The notes beneath the pieces were generated by a model, which was not told the DNA's origin, did not search any database, and worked only from the letters and a program-made list of their open reading frames with translations. Positions 6,526-58,506 of a stretch of 64,000 nt of DNA are shown here, piece by piece; the first letter of the stretch is position 1; every line of letters starts with the position of its first letter. The stretch lies in contig CAYMVO010000001.1 of the NCBI GenBank assembly GCA_964393975.1, forward strand, positions 4,055 to 68,054. Reading direction: 5' to 3'. Both the position numbers and the translations under genes were made by a program. This stretch comes from an uncultured Lachnospiraceae bacterium. GTDB taxonomy: Bacteria > Bacillota > Clostridia > Christensenellales > UBA1242.

Positions 6526-9500
6526 ATGATTTTGGAATATACTGGTAGACAACTTAAAATGTTTGACGAGAGAAGATTGGATGATACTTTTTACAAGGCA
6601 TTTTTGAATGATTATAGTGCTATTAGCACGAGAGATATGATTATCAAAGAGTATGATGCTTTGACTAATTTTGACGACTTTAGCAATCTTAAAAAAGCGG
6701 AAGATATATTTTGGGCTAAGGATAAAGGCACAGTAAGGCGTCGTTCATATTTTGATAGTCAACGCAAGAATATGATTAGAAACGCAATGCAAGAATACGA
6801 TAAGTGCTTGAATAATGTTATTATTTCTTTAAAAAAGAGTGAAGTGTTAGAGGAGCAAGTAAAAAATGCGACAAATCTTTTTGCTAGACAAGATCCTGAC
6901 CAACTAAGTCCAGAAGCATTGAAGGAAGCGCAACAAACGGTTGCTAATAATAATTTAATCTCTGAATTGTATGCGAAAGGCATTTTAGGACAAACTCTAG
7001 CTGAGGCGTTTAGCATTAGTAAGGCGCTTGAGTCAACATATAAGGGTGTTGATGGTGGCAAACTAAATGAGTTGCTCAGAGGTTCAAATTTTGAGCTCGC
7101 TTATAATAAAGTCAAAAATATTGACTTGACTGATGCTTTAAATAAAAAGAATATGGAAGAGACAATTGAAAAGTTTAAAGAATTAAAGTATTCTATAACT
7201 TATCTCAAAATGAATTTATCAAATACCAATTTATTGACGGAAAATGAAAAAACCAATTATAATCTTTTTAGAAAGCGTATAAGAGAGAATGAAAAAATAA
7301 TTTTTCCTAAGTTTAGAGATGAACAATTAAAAGAGTTTGAAAAAGCAGAAAAAGTCTTAGACAAAGAAAGTCTGAGAGAGGTGTTTAATAATATACTTGT
7401 CTCTAATAGAGTACAAAGAAAGCTAACTGCACCTTGTTACAATTATTCACAAATGGATTTTAGAAACGCAAGTTTTTGTGATCGTATTTTAATGGAAGCG
7501 AGCTTTTGGACTGGGGATGAAAGAACTAAAAAAGTTTTTGCGGAAATCAAGAATAAATTTATGTATGATCCAAAAACAGTAGAAAGAGCAAATTTGTATC
7601 GTGGGTTAGTGGCTAATGTGGAAGATTTGAAATTGTCTAACAATATCTTTACAAACGGTTTAATGATTGATGAGTTCCAAAAAAGAGCTGGAGCCTACAG
7701 AAGTAAAAAAAGTAGCAATAAACCTTTTATGGAGGAGTGCAAATTTCAAGATGCAATAAATAATTCTTTTGATGCTTCATATAGGCTCATCCATAGACCA
7801 CCGTATGATAAAGATTTGACACTAGATAAAGAGGCAAAGGTAAATGATGAAATTGCTAAATTTTTGGCAAAAGAAAAGCTTCATATGTTTATGCAAGGTG
7901 TGGAAGTTTCCAATCAAATGATTGTGGAAGCGACAAATGGAGACAAGGAGCAATATGACAAACTAATAAAGGCGTCAAATTCGTTCTCTAAGTCATACGT
8001 TTCAAATGTTTATGAGGCGTTTCGTGATGTGGTGTTAAATAACAAAGTAGAGAAGTTATACAGTTATTTCAATAAAAATAATGACGCTAGTAGGATTTTG
8101 GGCAATGATGATATGCTTAGTTACGCAAAGACTTTAGCGGAATGTGAGTATTTAGTTTATTCACTTGATGAAAATCAATTTAAAGAATTTAAAAACTTAT
8201 TAGCGGAGAAAAATAAAAGTTTAAATTCAATCATTGAACCATTATATAAAGATGAAAATAATGCCTCAATCAAAAATACAATTGACGCTTTGACTATATT
8301 AAATAGAGAGCATCTACGTTCATTATCACTAGAAGACAAACAATCAATTTTCAATAGAAGACTATATACTTATGCTCATCAATACAATAACGAAGGGGTT
8401 TTATCTGCTAGGGAGCATAATGAATTTATTGAGCGTTTTAAAGGGTTTATGGACTCCGAAGACGAAATGGTCTCTGCAATTATTAAGGAACAAAGATTTG
8501 CGGATATTAGCGATAGTATTAAAAGAGGTAGTAATTTATCCGCGGGACCTACTGGACCAAGCGCACCAACTGGTGCGGGTGCATCTGTTAGAGCAGGTGA
8601 ACCTATTATGATAGCAGGTGCGCCAACTGGTGCGGGTGCTGAGCCAACTGCGTCTACGCCAGCAAAGGAACCTAGCGAAGATGCTAAGGCAAAAAAAGAA
8701 GATAAAAAACCTGAAGCAAAGGCAGAAGCAAAAGAAAAACTAGACAGTCTAAAAGAGCTACCAGATTATGAAAAAGATATGGCGACTTTAAAAGACATTA
8801 AAAAGAAATATAGCAAGGCAGATTTTGCTCAAGATAATAAAAAATTTTGGAACGGACTTGGTTTTGTTGCGTGCGTATTAATAGGTATTGCAATGGTGCT
8901 TACAGGTGCCGCTTTACCAGGGCTTGCTGCTTACGCGTTAGGTAACTTTGCGGCTATAGGTATAGGTGCCGGTTACTTTTGGACCAAGCGCGAAGAAGTC
9001 GCCGGACCACGCCGAGCTGACGCTAGACGAGTACAAGAAATTATGGATAAATATGGCATCAAGACTATACCTCAAAGAGCGTTAGGATTTTTAGGTAGGT
9101 TTAACCCATTCCAAAGGTCAATGGAGCGTAATATGGTCGAGGCACCTGAAATTTATATCAATGACGCTATAGCTAGAATGCAAAAAATGAGATGTGAAAC
9201 TGATTTGTATAATAGCACAATATGTGGTGGAACTGGTCTTGGAGAGAGTAGTGAAGTTAAAGCTGATAAAGGGGAAGAAATAGACCACGAAGCTAGTGAA
9301 AAGAAAGAGCCTGAAAAAGAAGCTATTGCTAAGACTGAGGAAACTGAAAAAGCTGAAGAGAAAAAGCCTGAAGAAAAAGCAAAAGCTCCAGAAACGGCAA
9401 GTACTGAAGAATCTAAAGGGGAGACGGTCGAAACTTTAGGCGCTGGTGATGAGTCAAAAGAAGAGGTTGAACCAACTACTTTGGAAGAACCTAAAGAAGT

Positions 9501-9699
9501 TGAAGAGAAAGAGGCTAAAACATCTACCCCAGAAGAAACTAAAGAAACCGAAGTATTGGAGAAAGGTGGGGAAACTAAAGCTCCAGAACCTAAAGAAGTG
9601 GAAGAGATTACTCCAAAAGGACTAGAGGAGGAAAAGACTCCAACAAGACAAATGACGCTAGATGACTTTGGCGGAAGGACTATGGAAAGGTGGTCTTAA
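6526..9699 (+). CDS. large orphan membrane-anchored protein (1057 aa) with low-complexity linker and acidic tail
   Basis: Uninterrupted 3.2 kb ORF. It begins with a ~650-aa helical N-terminal region without known motifs. A G/A/P/T repeat linker follows (~8536-8760), then a hydrophobic hairpin FWNGLGFVACVLIGIAMVLTGAALPGLAAYALGNFAAIGIGAGYFW (~8845-8985). The tail is E/K/T/P-rich (~9240-9696). Confidence 0.75.
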   Translation: MILEYTGRQLKMFDERRLDDTFYKAFLNDYSAISTRDMIIKEYDALTNFDDFSNLKKAEDIFWAKDKGTVRRRSYFDSQRKNMIRNAMQEYDKCLNNVIISLKKSEVLEEQVKNATNLFARQDPDQLSPEALKEAQQTVANNNLISELYAKGILGQTLAEAFSISKALESTYKGVDGGKLNELLRGSNFELAYNKVKNIDLTDALNKKNMEETIEKFKELKYSITYLKMNLSNTNLLTENEKTNYNLFRKRIRENEKIIFPKFRDEQLKEFEKAEKVLDKESLREVFNNILVSNRVQRKLTAPCYNYSQMDFRNASFCDRILMEASFWTGDERTKKVFAEIKNKFMYDPKTVERANLYRGLVANVEDLKLSNNIFTNGLMIDEFQKRAGAYRSKKSSNKPFMEECKFQDAINNSFDASYRLIHRPPYDKDLTLDKEAKVNDEIAKFLAKEKLHMFMQGVEVSNQMIVEATNGDKEQYDKLIKASNSFSKSYVSNVYEAFRDVVLNNKVEKLYSYFNKNNDASRILGNDDMLSYAKTLAECEYLVYSLDENQFKEFKNLLAEKNKSLNSIIEPLYKDENNASIKNTIDALTILNREHLRSLSLEDKQSIFNRRLYTYAHQYNNEGVLSAREHNEFIERFKGFMDSEDEMVSAIIKEQRFADISDSIKRGSNLSAGPTGPSAPTGAGASVRAGEPIMIAGAPTGAGAEPTASTPAKEPSEDAKAKKEDKKPEAKAEAKEKLDSLKELPDYEKDMATLKDIKKKYSKADFAQDNKKFWNGLGFVACVLIGIAMVLTGAALPGLAAYALGNFAAIGIGAGYFWTKREEVAGPRRADARRVQEIMDKYGIKTIPQRALGFLGRFNPFQRSMERNMVEAPEIYINDAIARMQKMRCETDLYNSTICGGTGLGESSEVKADKGEEIDHEASEKKEPEKEAIAKTEETEKAEEKKPEEKAKAPETASTEESKGETVETLGAGDESKEEVEPTTLEEPKEVEEKEAKTSTPEETKETEVLEKGGETKAPEPKEVEEITPKGLEEEKTPTRQMTLDDFGGRTMERWS
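8566..8639 (+). repeat. in-frame 17-bp perfect direct repeat (CCAACTGGTGCGGGTGC) inside the large ORF
   Basis: Copies lie at 8566-8582 and 8623-8639, 57 bp (19 codons) apart. Both encode PTGAGA in a locally GC-richer block. Confidence 0.9.
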
Positions 9700-12337: not shown

Positions 12338-13021
12338 ATGAGTGTTTGTAGTTTTTGTGGCAGTGAATTGGTGTCTTTAAATGAGGCAGAGCAAAAAGTT
12401 TTAGCGGGGTTAATAAATAGTAGTAAATGTGGCGATTTATACAAATTGTATCCACACGTTTTTGAATATTGTCCTAATTGCCTTGTTTGTAAGGATGTGA
12501 CAGAAGATGATATAAAAAAAATAACTTTGCGTAAAGATGATTTACAAAAAGCATTTGAAAATAAAAAAATTGAGGATGTGGATATTTTTAAGTGGGCGAG
12601 GATAGCGGAGTTGGTTGGCTTTAATTATGAAATATTAGGTGATTATAGAAAAAGCACGCTTGCTTACAAGGCTTGCACTGATATATTAGATTTGATGATA
12701 TCTACTTATATATCTAAAAATCAGCATTTAGTGGATGAGAACGGTGAGACAGTCAGTCTTTTAAAAGAAGAAGCTTTTGAAAAATGCAAAAATGCTTTGA
12801 TATATAGTAAAAGTTTGAAAAGATTGACCTTAGGGCATTGTCAAAAATGTTTAAGTGATGATGATTTTTTAATGTTTTTAATTTATTTTGATACTTTGAT
12901 TGAGTTGGGTGTAAAAGATGAATGCGTAAAAATATCAACAGTTTTACAAAAAGAAAAACATCCTAATAGTGATTATCAGAATGCAATCAATTGTTTGATA
13001 CAAAAAGCATCAAATTTCTAG
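12338..13021 (+). CDS. zinc-ribbon plus helical (TPR-like) protein, DUF2225-like; paralog of 14239-14904
   Basis: N-terminal CxxC...CPNC (CSFCGSEL ... YCPNCLVC) is followed by a helical C-terminal part. The architecture matches that of 14239-14904. Confidence 0.5.
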   Translation: MSVCSFCGSELVSLNEAEQKVLAGLINSSKCGDLYKLYPHVFEYCPNCLVCKDVTEDDIKKITLRKDDLQKAFENKKIEDVDIFKWARIAELVGFNYEILGDYRKSTLAYKACTDILDLMISTYISKNQHLVDENGETVSLLKEEAFEKCKNALIYSKSLKRLTLGHCQKCLSDDDFLMFLIYFDTLIELGVKDECVKISTVLQKEKHPNSDYQNAINCLIQKASNF

Positions 13022-14238: not shown

Positions 14239-14904
14239 ATGCAGTTTGAAGATAAATTGACATACGAAAAAAGGGAGTGTGGTATATGCCACTTTAGTTG
14301 GTATTATCCAAAATTTAATGAGGAAGTCTTAACCCCTATAGAAAAGTTATTTTATTTACAAATTGATATTTGCCCTAATTGTAAGTACACTAGCGAAGAC
14401 GTTACTCAAATTATGGATGGCGAAGCGGAGTTGATGAAGACTAAAGAGTATGAGGAGTTGATAAAATCTAAAAACGCTAAATATGCTTTAGTTTGTCACA
14501 GAGAGTCGTATATTTGTCTAGCTTATGCGTTTTTAAAAGAGAAATTGCACCAATTTGGACTTGCAGGGAAAGCGTATTTAGTTGCATCTGAAATAGAAAC
14601 AATGCAATATGAAACATATCTAAATAGCAATTTGTATAATGAAAAACTTGATAAAGAAATGATAGAAGAGTCAAAGAAAAATGTGACAAAGTACATACAA
14701 AAGGGACTTAGTAACATTTTGGTGTATGCCCAACAAAAAAGTACACTAGATATAAAAGATTACTTGTTAATTAGTTACGCTTACGTGAGAAATGGCGAAA
14801 AGGAAAACTCACTAAGGTATTTGAGTCAAGCAATAAAATTAAAACCAACCGATGATTTGATTGATATTATACAACAAATTAATAATATGACAAAGGAGCT
14901 TTAA
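14239..14904 (+). CDS. zinc-ribbon plus helical (TPR-like) protein, DUF2225-like; paralog of 12338-13021
   Basis: CGICHFSW ... ICPNCKYTSEDV zinc ribbon is followed by a helical repeat region. A TAGGAGG SD is present. Confidence 0.5.
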   Translation: MQFEDKLTYEKRECGICHFSWYYPKFNEEVLTPIEKLFYLQIDICPNCKYTSEDVTQIMDGEAELMKTKEYEELIKSKNAKYALVCHRESYICLAYAFLKEKLHQFGLAGKAYLVASEIETMQYETYLNSNLYNEKLDKEMIEESKKNVTKYIQKGLSNILVYAQQKSTLDIKDYLLISYAYVRNGEKENSLRYLSQAIKLKPTDDLIDIIQQINNMTKEL

Positions 14905-19887: not shown

Positions 19888-19918
19888 ATATAGTATTGAA
19901 TAATATGGAGTGCGAAAG

Positions 19919-20470
19919 ATGAAGTTACTTTTACATAGTTGTTGCGCACCTTGCAGTAGTTCGGTGCTAGAACAATTAATAACAACTGAGAGATTTGATG
20001 AAATTTCTATATATTATTACAATCCAAATATTTTCCCTGAGACTGAGTATCTAAAAAGAAAGTCGGAGCAAATACGAATGCTAAGTATCTTGTATCCTTT
20101 TGTTAAGATAATAGATAGTGATTATGAAAACAAAACTTTTTTAAATGCTGTAAAGGGTTTGGAAAAAGAAAAAGAGGGTGGTGCTAGATGTGATGTTTGT
20201 TATAGACTTAGAATGAAAAGCACCGCCGAGAAAGCAAAAGAGTTAGGTTATGATTATTTTGGAACAACGCTATCGGTTAGTCCATACAAAAACGCCGAGC
20301 ATTTAAACAATATTGGATTTGAGTTGCAAAGAGAGATCGGCGTAAATTATTTGGAAGCAAATTTCAAAAAGAAAAATGGCTATCTTAGGTCTATTCAATT
20401 AAGTAAAGAATTAAATTTGTATAGACAAAATTATTGTGGCTGTCCATTTAGTATGCCACGCAATGAATAA
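19919..20470 (+). CDS. queH: epoxyqueuosine reductase QueH (DUF208)
   Basis: LLHSCCAPCSS, CDVCYRLR and YCGC cysteine motifs are present. ATG 19919 lies 8 nt after GGAG; the track GTG at 19910 overlaps the SD. Confidence 0.8.
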   Translation: MKLLLHSCCAPCSSSVLEQLITTERFDEISIYYYNPNIFPETEYLKRKSEQIRMLSILYPFVKIIDSDYENKTFLNAVKGLEKEKEGGARCDVCYRLRMKSTAEKAKELGYDYFGTTLSVSPYKNAEHLNNIGFELQREIGVNYLEANFKKKNGYLRSIQLSKELNLYRQNYCGCPFSMPRNE

Positions 20471-40507: not shown

Positions 40508-41554
40508 ATGGATGATGAGAGACTGATAACTAGCACAAAAGGTTTAAGCGAATCTGAAATGGAAAACTCGCTAAGACCTACACAATTAAGTGATTATGTT
40601 GGACAAGACAAGATAAAAAAGAGCCTTAATGTCTATATAGAAGCCACCAAAAAAAGAGGTGAGGCGTTAGACCATGTATTGCTTTATGGTCCACCAGGAC
40701 TCGGAAAGACCACGCTTAGCCATATTATAGCAAGCGAACTTGGTGTGCAAATAAAGGTCACTAGCGGACCAGCTATTGAGCACGCTGCAGACTTAGCAAG
40801 TATATTGACAAACTTAGGCAAAAATGATGTGCTATTTATAGACGAGATACATAGACTTAATAGAAATATTGAAGAAATCTTATATCCTGCGATGGAAGAT
40901 TTTGCGCTAGATTTTATAGTAGGAAAAGGTCCGTCTGCTAGAAGTATGCGATTAAAGATACAACCTTTTACGCTAATAGGAGCGACCACTAGAGCGGGAA
41001 TGTTGACCTCGCCGTTAAGAGATAGATTTGGTATTCTCGCTAGACTAGAAATGTATTCAAAAGAAGAGTTAAATAAGATTATTAAACGAAGTGCAACTAT
41101 TTTAGGTGTGCAAATTAGCGATGAAGCAAGTGGTGAAATAGCGAGTCGCAGTCGTGGGACACCTCGTATAGCGAATAGACTTTTAAAACGTATTAGAGAT
41201 TTTGCGGAGGTCAAGAATAGTAAAGAAATCACTCTTGAAATTGCAAACGACGCACTAGAAATTATGGAGATAGACGAACTCGGTCTTGATTTTGTGGACA
41301 GAAGAGTACTGGGTGCTATAATAGACAAGTTTAATGGAGGACCAGTAGGACTAGATACACTATCCGCTTCAACAGGCGAAGAGGCAACTACTATTGAGGA
41401 TGTCTATGAACCATATTTACTACAATTGGGATTTATCGCAAGAACCCCTAGAGGTAGAGTCGCTATGCCAAATGCCTATAAACATTTAGGTATAGAACTC
41501 AGTGATAAAAAAGCTAATGAATTAAAACAATATGAGGAATTTAAAGAAAATTGA
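40508..41554 (+). CDS. ruvB: Holliday junction DNA helicase RuvB
   Basis: LRP..L..YVGQ, Walker [10 protein letters not shown], Walker B FIDEIHR, and [11 protein letters not shown] are present. Confidence 0.95.
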
Positions 41555-41556
41555 CT

Positions 41557-42588
41557 ATGAATATTTATGATAAGAAAACATACTTCTATGATTTACCTGA
41601 GGAATTAATTGCACAATCACCGGTGGAACCACGAGACAGTTCTAGACTGCTTGTATATAATAGAGAGACAAAGCAAATACAACACAAACATTTTTATAAT
41701 ATCATTGACTACTTAAAAGCTGGTGATGTGCTAGTCATAAATGATACAAAAGTATTACCCGCTAGAATGTTTGGAATAAAAGAGGAGACGGGTGCAAAGA
41801 TAGAGGTTTTACTCAGTAAACGTGAAGATTTAAAGACTTGGCAAGTGCTTTTAAGACCTGCAAAGCGTTGTAAAGTGGGGAGCATTATAAAGATAAATGA
41901 TGAATTGAAATTTGAAGTCTTAGAAGATTTGCAAGAAGGACTGAAGAGAGTTCGTTTTGATTACGAGGGGACCTTTGAAACAATAATAGCAAAGGTCGGC
42001 ACAATGCCATTACCTCAATATATAAAGAAAAAATGCGAAGATCCTACTAGATATCAAACCGTTTATGCGAATAAAGAAGGTTCCTCGGCTGCGCCAACTG
42101 CAGGGTTACATTTTACAAATGAATTGCTAGATAAGATAAGAGAAAAAGGTGTCACTATTGTAAAGGTGTTATTGCACGTAGGACTAGGGACTTTTAGACC
42201 TGTGAAAACGGATAATATTTTAGAGCACACTATGCACAGTGAACATATAGAAATTAGTGAAGAAAGCGCTAATATAATCACTAGGGCTAAGGCTGAAGGA
42301 CGAAGGGTGATAGCTGTCGGTACTACTAGCGTTAGGGTACTTGAGGGCGGGAGTACACAAGATGCAGTATTACACGCGGGCTCTAGTGATACAAACATCT
42401 TTATTTATCCTGGGTATAAATTTAAAATAGTCGATGCCATTATCACAAACTTTCATTTGCCAGAAAGTACTCTTATTATGCTAGTGAGTGCTTTTGCAGG
42501 GTTGGATGAAACGATGAATATATATAATATAGCTGTACAAGAAAAATATAGATTTTTTAGCTTTGGCGATGCTATGTTTATAGAATAA
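41557..42588 (+). CDS. queA: S-adenosylmethionine:tRNA ribosyltransferase-isomerase
   Basis: YDLPEELIAQSP N-terminus, GTFRPV and FFSFGDAMFI C-terminus are present. ATG 41557 lies just after the ruvB stop. Confidence 0.9.
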   Translation: MNIYDKKTYFYDLPEELIAQSPVEPRDSSRLLVYNRETKQIQHKHFYNIIDYLKAGDVLVINDTKVLPARMFGIKEETGAKIEVLLSKREDLKTWQVLLRPAKRCKVGSIIKINDELKFEVLEDLQEGLKRVRFDYEGTFETIIAKVGTMPLPQYIKKKCEDPTRYQTVYANKEGSSAAPTAGLHFTNELLDKIREKGVTIVKVLLHVGLGTFRPVKTDNILEHTMHSEHIEISEESANIITRAKAEGRRVIAVGTTSVRVLEGGSTQDAVLHAGSSDTNIFIYPGYKFKIVDAIITNFHLPESTLIMLVSAFAGLDETMNIYNIAVQEKYRFFSFGDAMFIE

Positions 42589-43713
<1,125 letters not shown>

Positions 43714-56108: not shown

Positions 56109-56429
56109 ATGAGAGAATTAAAACATATAAACGAAAATGAATTTGAGTCAGTAGTTAGCTCAAACAAACTTGTTCTGGTTGACTTTTTTGCTACTTGGTG
56201 TCCGCCTTGCAAGATGCTTGGACCTGTGCTAGAAGAAACTTTACAAGAAGTAGGCGATGATACTGATATTGTCAAGATAAATGTTGATGAAAATGAAAAA
56301 TTGAGTCAAAAATTTAATATTATGAGTGTTCCGACACTTATTCTATTCAAAGATGGTGAAATGGTTGATAAGACTATAGGTTATCAACCTAAAGAGCAAA
56401 TATTAAATTTTATAAATCAAAATAAATAA
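56109..56429 (+). CDS. trxA: thioredoxin
   Basis: WCPPCK active site is present, in a 106-aa protein. Confidence 0.9.
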   Translation: MRELKHINENEFESVVSSNKLVLVDFFATWCPPCKMLGPVLEETLQEVGDDTDIVKINVDENEKLSQKFNIMSVPTLILFKDGEMVDKTIGYQPKEQILNFINQNK

Positions 56430-56439
56430 GTGCAAAATT

Positions 56440-56474
56440 AAGTAGCGCGTCAATATTGACAACTACTTTTTTTT
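56440..56474 (+). terminator. rho-independent terminator after trxA
   Basis: AAGTAG ... CTACTT outer stem enclosing the perfect palindrome GTCAATATTGAC (56449-56460), followed by T8. Confidence 0.65.
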
Positions 56475-56484
56475 GTGGTAAAAT
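56456..56484 (+). promoter_or_regulatory. sigmaA-type promoter (TTGACA-17-TGgTAAAAT) for nifS
   Basis: -35 at 56456-56461 is embedded in the trxA terminator. Extended -10 at 56476-56484. Confidence 0.5.
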
Positions 56485-56522: not shown

Positions 56523-57707
56523 ATGGAAATACGTAAAGTTTACCTTGATAACTCGGCTACAACATTTGTTGGTAGTGATGTCTTGAGAGAAATGCTTCCT
56601 ACTTTTAACGCTAGTTTTGGCAATCCTAACAGTCCAAATTCTTATGGTAGGGAGGCGCACGCTTTAGTGGAGCTTGCTCGTGAGAGAGTCGCAAAGTCTA
56701 TCGGTGCGAAAGCTAGCGAAATTTATTTTACATCAGGTGGCACAGAGTCTAACAACTGGGCTATAAAGGGTATTGCTCATAAATTAAAAGAAAAAGGTAA
56801 TCATATTATCACATCTGCCATTGAGCACGATAGTATACTCAATGCTTGTAAGCAACTAGAGGGTGAGGGGTTTAAGGTAACATATCTTAGACCTGACGAA
56901 AATGGTATAATCAGTATAGCAGATTTGATGCACAATATCGGCAAAGGCACTATTTTAATATCAATAATGTCAGCTAATAATGAGCTAGGCACTATCCAAA
57001 ATATTCAAGCGCTCGCTCATACAGCACAAGAAAAAGGTATTGTTTTTCACACTGATGCCACACAAGCTTATGGCGCTATAAACTTTCATGTAAATGATAT
57101 GTGTATAGATATGATGAGTATTAGTAGTCATAAGATATATGGTCCAAAAGGTGTTGGTGCGTTATATATTCGTGAGGGGATTGAGCTAGAGCCACTTTTA
57201 AATGGTGGCGAGCAAGAAAACGGAATGCGTGGTGGCACTAGCAATGTACCTGGTATAGTTGGCTTTGGCAAGGCGTGTGAGATAGCTACTAGAGATATGA
57301 GTATCAATGCACATAAAATAAGATCTCTAAAAGAGCATTTTATAAAAAAATTAACCGCCGAAGTACCGAACTTTAAAATCAATGGTCACAATTACCAAAG
57401 ATTACAAGGCGTTTTGAGTATTACTTTTGAGGGGGTGGATGGTGAGGCGTTAACCACACTTTTGGATATGAAAGGTATTGCAGTCAGTACTGGAAGTGCT
57501 TGCAATAGTGGTTCACATAAACCTAGTTACGTTTTGACAGCTATCGGTTTAGATACTATCGAGGCAAAAAGTACTATACGAATTTCTATAGGTAAAAGTA
57601 ATACAAAAGAAGAGCTTGACTATGTGGTTTTGACTATCAAAGATGCTGTGGAAAATTTGAGAGCAATAAGTCCTATTAGAATAAAAAAGAAAAAGTTGGA
57701 GGATTAG
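56523..57707 (+). CDS. nifS: cysteine desulfurase (NifS/IscS class I)
   Basis: PLP-lysine context SSHKIYGPKG and catalytic Cys loop STGSACNSG are present. Confidence 0.9.
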   Translation: MEIRKVYLDNSATTFVGSDVLREMLPTFNASFGNPNSPNSYGREAHALVELARERVAKSIGAKASEIYFTSGGTESNNWAIKGIAHKLKEKGNHIITSAIEHDSILNACKQLEGEGFKVTYLRPDENGIISIADLMHNIGKGTILISIMSANNELGTIQNIQALAHTAQEKGIVFHTDATQAYGAINFHVNDMCIDMMSISSHKIYGPKGVGALYIREGIELEPLLNGGEQENGMRGGTSNVPGIVGFGKACEIATRDMSINAHKIRSLKEHFIKKLTAEVPNFKINGHNYQRLQGVLSITFEGVDGEALTTLLDMKGIAVSTGSACNSGSHKPSYVLTAIGLDTIEAKSTIRISIGKSNTKEELDYVVLTIKDAVENLRAISPIRIKKKKLED

Positions 57708-57710
57708 TAT

Positions 57711-58100
57711 ATGTATAGTGAAAAAGTTATGCAAATATTTGCACATCCAAAAAACGTAGGTATCATAAAAAATGCCGATGCAGTCGGTGAAGCGGAAAAC
57801 AAGTCTCGCGGTGCTGTTATAAAGCTTTATTTGAGTGTTGATATTGACACCATTGCTGAAGTAAAATTTAAAGCATTCGGAGATCCATACATAATCGCTT
57901 GTATGTCAGTGCTAACTGGTATGCTAAAAGATAAAAACATTGACACTATTGAAACATTTAATAGTGAAGCGGTACTAAGTTATTTAGGCGATATTCCGAA
58001 AGAACAAGAGTATATAGTAGGATTGATTAATGATTTAATAGCTGATACTTTAAAAGATTATCACAAAAAATTACAAAAATTATCCGAATTTGATGCATAA
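57711..58100 (+). CDS. NifU/IscU-like protein lacking the canonical Fe-S ligand cysteines
   Basis: N-terminus MYSEKVMQIFAHPKNVG and FKAFG, LKDYHKK match U-type scaffold framework residues. However, CGD reads RGA, FGCG reads FGDP and HCS reads YIV. Only one Cys is present in 129 aa. Confidence 0.6.
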   Translation: MYSEKVMQIFAHPKNVGIIKNADAVGEAENKSRGAVIKLYLSVDIDTIAEVKFKAFGDPYIIACMSVLTGMLKDKNIDTIETFNSEAVLSYLGDIPKEQEYIVGLINDLIADTLKDYHKKLQKLSEFDA

Positions 58101-58235: not shown

Positions 58236-58397
58236 ATGATGAAAGATTGTTTAATCATCGGTATGGCACTAGGGTTTTTAGTTGGTGCTGTTTTGGTGCA
58301 AAGCAACAAAAGCGTCCAAAACTTAGTCAAACAAGGTAAAGAAAAAGCACAGAAGAAAATACAAGAGCTCACGCAAAATAGCCCCCAAGAAAACTAA
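58236..58397 (+). CDS. small membrane protein (53 aa, YtxH-like), not in the ORF track
   Basis: AAGGAGG SD (58226-58232) precedes the ATG. The product is MMKDCLIIGMALGFLVGAVLVQSNKSVQNLVKQGKEKAQKKIQELTQNSPQEN, one TM helix plus an amphipathic tail. A terminator follows at 58424. Confidence 0.6.
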   Translation: MMKDCLIIGMALGFLVGAVLVQSNKSVQNLVKQGKEKAQKKIQELTQNSPQEN

Positions 58398-58477: not shown

Positions 58478-58506
58478 TTGACAATACAATTTTTTTATTG
58501 TATAAT
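58478..58506 (+). promoter_or_regulatory. sigmaA-type promoter (TTGACA-17-TATAAT) for ruvX
   Basis: Consensus hexamers at 58478-58483 and 58501-58506. Confidence 0.65.

Follow-up and report, generated by a model that had tools for sequence, protein, structure and literature searches.

Our analysis shows that the gene directly downstream of the cysteine desulfurase gene nifS, in the 64,000-nucleotide stretch of DNA studied here (the window), encodes a full-length protein of the IscU/NifU family in which every ligand of the iron-sulfur (Fe-S) cluster has been replaced. We refer to this gene and its product as nifU*. The reading that we favour, at a probability of roughly 55%, is that nifU* occupies the place of the clostridial NifU/IscU-type (MIS-type) scaffold as its positional orthologue, is no longer a cluster site, and has been kept as a non-catalytic subunit of NifS. 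Its binding to NifS and its effect on NifS are what we infer from sequence comparison. Ligand-free U-type partners of NifS, of which we found no prior description, are a broad group in uncultured gut Clostridia.

All cluster ligands of nifU* are replaced

The window has a base composition of 34% G+C and belongs to the genome of a Clostridia-type spore-former. Its genes around nifU* are, in order, topA, trmFO, hslV, hslU, trxA, nifS, nifU*, a small ORF, ruvX, DUF1292, rpsB, tsf, frr, uppS and cdsA. A first-pass annotation of this DNA had placed a 129-aa gene right after a cysteine desulfurase, and this holds: the ATG of nifU* (57711) follows the TAG stop codon of nifS (57705-57707) with a gap of 3 nt. 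The features used below are as follows, the codons and the Shine-Dalgarno having been read directly from the sequence.

56109..56429 (+), trxA, thioredoxin (Pfam Thioredoxin, E=1e-30)
56456..56484 (+), match to a sigma-70-type promoter (TTGACA-17-TAAAAT, extended -10 with TG) within the 93 nt between trxA and nifS
56523..57707 (+), nifS, type I (NifS/IscS-like) cysteine desulfurase (Pfam Aminotran_5, E=1e-84)
57698..57702 (+), GGAGG Shine-Dalgarno of nifU*, within the 3' end of nifS and 8 nt 5' of the ATG
57711..58100 (+), nifU*, 129-aa IscU/NifU-fold protein without any cluster ligand
57807-09 (+), nifU* R33, codon cgc
57813-15 (+), nifU* A35, codon gct
57882-84 (+), nifU* D58, codon gat
57900-02 (+), nifU* C64, the sole Cys, in the motif IIACMS; not conserved among relatives
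58011-13 (+), nifU* Y101, codon tat
58014-16 (+), nifU* I102, codon ata

The framework of a U-type scaffold, also recognised in the first-pass annotation, was recovered with Pfam PF01592 (NifU_N; E=9.2e-24, 84.4 bits vs a cutoff of 22, residues 1-121) and by alignment to solved IscU chains. Every curated NCBIfam scaffold equivalog cutoff was missed, with 87 bits for TIGR03419 (NifU_clost; cutoff 187.9), 51.6 bits for TIGR01999 (IscU; cutoff 192.4), 58.9 bits for TIGR02000 (cutoff 273.3) and 31.5 bits for TIGR01994 (SufU; cutoff 92.5). AlphaFold2, run with 44 family sequences, gave a model at a mean pLDDT of 94.7 with the predicted IscU fold, that is, an N-terminal helix, a three-stranded sheet and a helical bundle. 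The Foldseek matches of this model in the PDB were 4eb5_C, 7c8m, 2z7e and 3lvl (TM 0.83-0.87), the best being 4eb5_C, the IscU chain of the A. fulgidus IscS-IscU complex (TM 0.87). By sequence and fold, nifU* is a member of PF01592.

Residue-by-residue alignment with 4eb5_C and other solved IscU chains shows that the CGD motif of IscU has become R33-G34-A35, FGC has become F56-G57-D58 and HC has become Y101-I102. The cluster site has undergone five swaps: Cys to Arg33, Asp to Ala35, Cys to Asp58, His to Tyr101 and Cys to Ile102. Alignment and codons agree in every detail with the earlier description of three replaced motifs and a single cysteine in IIACMS. In our comparison set 58/58 canonical representatives carry C, G, D, C, H and C at the ligand columns, and five simultaneous swaps are therefore outside the normal variation of the family. 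When the Cys, Asp and His columns were inspected after the PF01592 match, nifU* proved to belong to the same family and to have no ligand Cys at equivalent positions. The claim that such a protein cannot assemble a cluster in the canonical way is supported, all of these columns being replaced in nifU* and kept in the 58 canonical proteins.

U-type scaffolds are defined by three cysteines. In nifU* all three are lacking (R33, D58, I102), together with the Asp of CGD and the His of HC (A35, Y101), which are 100% D and H in canonical proteins; what nifU* and all Cys-less loci examined do have is the adjacent type I cysteine desulfurase. As for SufU, nifU* has no ligand Cys, scores below the HMM cutoff and has a partner that is not a type II SufS. 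By its defining functional features nifU* is neither an IscU/NifU/MisU scaffold nor a SufU.

nifU* is coupled to nifS

The best match of the window desulfurase is NifS/IscS (487 bits, vs 178 bits for SufS), the score against NCBIfam FeS_nifS being below the equivalog cutoff of 530.75. Judging from its residues, the enzyme is apparently catalytically intact: it keeps the PLP-lysine motif SSHK, the catalytic loop STGSAC, the substrate Arg and the C-terminal LRxxSP helix, which is the IscU-binding helix of E. coli. The catalytic Cys is present in 120/120 of its nearest NifS homologues. In eight Cys-less loci (the window, L001, L026, L081, L083, L089, L090 and L091), representing seven distinct proteins, nifU* lies directly 3' of nifS, with an overlap or a gap of 1-3 nt. 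These data show that nifU* shares a transcript, or is translationally coupled, with an intact nifS.

The promoter match in the trxA-nifS spacer, likely the start of a bicistronic nifS-nifU* unit, agrees with the consensus at 11/12 positions; it is a consensus match only, the number of such sites in the region not being above the shuffled expectation. A terminator scan found no intrinsic terminator after nifU*.

A different situation was observed for the NifS encoded beside the Cys-less NifU P0006 (L081:6824-8008, L082:2517-3701), which keeps the PLP lysine and has lost the catalytic Cys, its loop reading STGTASTS and not S-x-GSAC. The two independent contigs differ by 14 nt but by only 2 aa in this NifS (dN/dS about 0.05). 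As P0006 is itself Cys-less, both partners are 'dead' for persulfide chemistry and yet conserved, a hint that this pair has a PLP-dependent function that has nothing to do with persulfide transfer.

A large Cys-less group keeps most of the putative desulfurase-contact residues

The first-pass annotation had treated nifU* as a lone oddity, and on this point it needs correcting, since nifU* is one of a large and diverse group. When 1.84 billion cluster representatives were searched exhaustively with HMMER, 2106 matches were obtained, and the best 150 (50%-identity clusters) were analysed. Among these best 150, about 58-60 were canonical, 43 had none of the three Cys and 20 had only one. A word-index search, with the window protein excluded, returned five homologues, 5/5 without ligands. 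We define the Cys-less group here, not as a curated family, by the IscU framework, the absence of all three Cys and a position directly after nifS. Several members, for example P0008, P0028, P0044 and P0056, have no Cys anywhere, so that Cys chemistry cannot be the common function of the group. The taxonomic placement of the group rests on the source names of NifS homologues, which are Christensenellales, Christensenellaceae and Clostridia, and on MAG titles. Neither the curated NCBIfam models nor the literature yielded a ligand-free U-type form: a full-text search found nothing relevant on Cys-less or degenerate IscU/NifU, and a 2026 review treats MisU and SufU and no ligand-free form (PMC13066941).

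The residues most conserved across the 43 Cys-less representatives are listed here in nifU* numbering, with the E. coli IscU equivalent where it is a contact.

Y2, 93% (E. coli IscU Y3)
F10, 91% (E. coli IscU Y11)
N15, 93%
G17, 100%
A22, 84%
G26, 84%
K38, 84% (E. coli IscU K42)
Y40, 79%
K52, 77%
F53, 91%
K54, 91% (E. coli IscU K59)
G57, 93% (E. coli IscU G62)
Y117, 93%

The window nifU* retains all the residues of the group (Y2, F10, N15, G17, K38, F53-K54, G57 and Y117). In the E. coli IscS-IscU structure the contacts of IscU are Tyr3, Tyr11, Gly38, Val40, Lys42, Lys59-Gly64 and Lys103, and binding to IscS is abolished by removal of the first 12 residues of IscU as well as by the K103E mutation (PMC2854127). 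Five of the conserved positions coincide with these contacts (Y3, Y11, K42, K59 and G62) and are kept in 84-93% of the 43 proteins. In the ligand columns 33, 35, 58 and 102, on the other hand, no single residue exceeds 47%. Column 101, the former His, is Tyr in 24/43 members (57%), and position 35 is Asp or Glu in 36/43 (84%) and Ala in the window nifU*. Across the 43 Cys-less relatives the alignment shows conservation of the putative E. coli-type desulfurase-contact surface while the pocket drifts. The main weakness of this argument is the position of E. coli K103, which is Gln99 in the window nifU* and Lys in 59% of the Cys-less members. Furthermore, Y2, F10, K38 and G57 are also determinants of the fold and core, so that their conservation does not specifically prove an interface.

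nifU* is the positional counterpart of a canonical scaffold

A canonical counterpart of the window locus was found on an 828-kb contig named Christensenellaceae (L092), whose NifS is 58% identical to that of the window. Its gene order (comM, dprA, topA, hslU, hisS, trxA, Rrf2, nifS, nifU ... ruvX, frr, uppS, cdsA) is syntenic with the window, and its NifU is fully canonical (CGD/FGC/HCS), as is the NifU of L093. By this synteny, nifU* and a normal scaffold are positional orthologues. In a neighbour-joining tree of NifS, the partners of Cys-less proteins cluster with L092 and L093 in a single clade (99.5% bootstrap), and in 0/200 replicates do they group without these two canonical loci; the internal nodes are weak. 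The insertion of hisS is common to the Cys-less locus L083 and the canonical L092. Because the tree never groups the Cys-less partners alone, ligands were probably lost more than once, and our data provisionally suggest more than one independent loss.

The neighbourhood of nifU* differs from that of canonical loci. An Rrf2 gene adjoins nifS in 0/4 scored Cys-less loci vs 38/78 canonical loci, and mnmA follows nifS-nifU in 0/4 vs 17/78. No Rrf2/IscR homologue was found by tblastn anywhere in the window, and no Rrf2 match is listed in the gene tables of the remaining Cys-less loci. The loss of an Rrf2/IscR that relatives have before nifS is consistent with a nifS-nifU* pair that has ceased to serve as an operon for Fe-S homeostasis.

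The thioredoxin gene trxA was considered as a specific functional partner and rejected. It lies 5' of nifS in the Cys-less L001, L083, L089 and L091, but also 5' of Rrf2-nifS in the canonical L092, and it is absent from this position in L081 and L090. As the canonical relative has it too, the adjacency of trxA predates the loss of ligands.

In L001 (3725-4405) and L091 (4242-4919) a ThiF-family gene of 225-227 aa separates hslU from trxA and stands two genes before nifS-nifU*. Its best NCBIfam match, below cutoff, is TcdA, the tRNA ct6A37 synthase, and we take this linkage to resemble that of E. coli CsdA-CsdE-TcdA. As a partner of nifU* this gene was rejected, since it occurs in these two loci only, is two genes away and has no homologue in the window.

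Alternative roles for nifU*

The alternative that survives best, although we consider it unlikely, is that nifU* has taken on a new function for which it need not dock on NifS at the IscU site, for example as an iron or other metal chaperone or as an adaptor bringing another client to NifS. The Tyr at the former His position and the Asp/Glu at position 35 hint at a new local constraint, and the TcdA-like gene of L001 and L091 goes in the same direction. Against it, the strongest conservation is found on the desulfurase-contact residues and not in the pocket, nifS is the only invariant partner, and the window, without any TcdA-like gene, otherwise surrounds the pair with unrelated housekeeping genes.

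The supply of Fe-S clusters bears on a second alternative. Two Fe-S clients are intact in the window: endonuclease III (Nth), with its C-X6-C-X2-C-X5-C motif, and QueH, whose Cys motifs are conserved and which is a marker of continuing Fe-S demand. The organism therefore still needs Fe-S assembly. The window contains three queuosine pathway genes, queH, queA and tgt (19910-20470 and 41551-43713, both +). The window and a 10-kb extension, together about 5% of the genome or less, contain neither a SUF gene nor an A-type carrier, a second U-type protein or Rrf2. These intact clients, and the lack of another assembly gene within 64-74 kb, would be explained if nifU* were still the Fe-S scaffold of the cell, using non-Cys ligands (Asp/Glu at 35, Tyr101 and Asp58, maybe shared with the loop Cys of NifS or across a dimer), with NifS-NifU* as an Fe-S assembly machine; the partial constraint on the pocket at positions 35 and 101 goes in the same direction. 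We nevertheless regard this as very unlikely. Position 35 of the window nifU* is Ala, no residue is preferred in columns 33, 58 and 102, several members are Cys-free, and the pocket differs even between relatives that are 88% identical, reading NKSRGAV in the window and NTLSGDV in the other. The loss of Rrf2/IscR also speaks against an Fe-S homeostasis operon, and to our knowledge there is no Fe-S scaffold without Cys ligands.

Our results further show that nifU* is not decaying. Compared with its 88%-identical relative P0002 (locus L089), nifU* has a dN/dS of 0.070 at a dS of 0.89, which is in the range of the housekeeping neighbours in the same comparison (nifS 0.036, hslU 0.058, frr 0.062, cdsA 0.088 and trxA 0.15). 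An identical nifU* protein is carried by 21 contigs read from several samples. Where NifS pairs are equally diverged (55-60% identity), identity is ~70% between canonical NifU proteins and ~38% between Cys-less ones. nifU* is evolving about twice as fast as canonical NifU, and the constraint on it is therefore weaker than on a true scaffold; it is relaxed but real. A non-functional remnant on its way out, surviving through co-transcription or translation with the essential nifS, would explain this faster evolution and a former active site that is free to vary, but can practically be dismissed, since the selection test largely refutes it, the ORF is full-length with its length and N- and C-terminal motifs conserved in at least 43 divergent clusters, the predicted fold is confident, and the gene has been kept in lineages that apparently lost the ligands independently.

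A proposed non-catalytic subunit of NifS

If nifU* is a retained NifS subunit, as we favour, it would dock on NifS at the IscU site, beside the mobile Cys loop and the C-terminal helix, and once docked it may stabilise, gate or tune the enzyme. The persulfide sulfur of NifS would then be delivered not to a U-type scaffold but to other acceptors, for example enzymes that thiolate tRNA or cofactors, or an Fe-S scaffold encoded elsewhere. The role proposed in the first-pass annotation, a pseudo-scaffold regulating NifS or an adaptor, fits the selection on nifU*, the putative desulfurase-contact surface kept beside a relaxed pocket, and the invariable coupling to nifS.

Among known systems, nifU* is closest to the clostridial-type NifU or IscU-like MisU (TIGR03419, PF01592), with which it shares the best HMM match, the length, the fold and the place after a type I NifS. 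It differs from these proteins in the loss of the three Cys, the Asp and the His, in a score far below their cutoff, in having no Rrf2 upstream or mnmA downstream and in its faster evolution. The nearest solved structures are those of IscU in the IscS-IscU complexes of A. fulgidus (4EB5) and E. coli (3LVL). Compared with E. coli IscU, nifU* keeps most of the IscS contacts but has no cluster or persulfide acceptor site, and a Gln stands at the equivalent of K103.

The nearest conceptual precedent is SufU, which has the same fold. In SufU the Cys and Asp are retained and serve as zinc ligands and persulfide acceptor, and its partner desulfurase is a type II SufS. As the zinc-dependent sulfurtransferase of the Gram-positive SUF system, it is a U-type protein turned desulfurase accessory that has given up the scaffold role (PMC13066941). 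Unlike SufU, nifU* has no Cys ligands, a type I NifS as partner and an HMM score well below the SufU cutoff. In eukaryotes the small protein ISD11 (LYRM4), which performs no chemistry itself, is required for a cysteine desulfurase to be stable or active. The role proposed for nifU* is alike, but this is an analogy only, the two proteins having no homology and ISD11 using a different site on the desulfurase.

Automated annotation would probably label nifU* as an Fe-S scaffold from its Pfam match, and reconstructions of gut MAGs would then credit these genomes with a working NIF/MIS Fe-S system that the nifU* sequence cannot deliver. The protein raises the question of how Fe-S clusters are supplied in this clade. 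Moreover, a ligand-free IscU beside an intact NifS is a natural separation-of-function variant, in which the effects of IscU binding stand apart from sulfur acceptance. A broader proposal, which we regard as possible but on balance doubtful, is that uncultured gut Clostridia (Christensenellales-like) repeatedly turned their only U-type scaffold into a Cys-free, obligatory NifS subunit, a new class of pseudo-scaffold. Were this true, binding of an IscU fold would have a cluster-independent role in controlling cysteine desulfurase; were SUF and SMS also absent from these genomes, Fe-S clusters would be built by a route without a recognised scaffold.

Other features of the locus and window

Between nifU* and ruvX lies a 53-aa ORF (58236-58397, +) with a hydrophobic N-terminal segment, whose sole Pfam match is weak and ZapG-like. 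It is kept in L089 (87% aa identity, dN/dS 0.04), and small unannotated ORFs of 46-52 aa occupy the equivalent position in L083, L085 and L091. A perfect 12/12 sigma-70 consensus (TTGACA-17-TATAAT) is found at 58478-58506 (+), 44 nt 5' of ruvX.

Five window ORFs, all on the + strand (414-1184, 1479-2456, 6526-9699, 12338-13021 and 14239-14904), had no match in Pfam, and those of them also scanned against NCBIfam had none there. One encodes a protein of 1057 aa, and two others encode Cys-rich proteins with 12 and 6 Cys and N-terminal CxxC pairs.

Finally, in L085 (19601-20390), about 9.6-10 kb past nifU* and beyond the window end, genes for a LexA-like repressor and an integrase of phage type come after an RNase T-like gene, and a prophage or integrative element may lie just downstream of the window.
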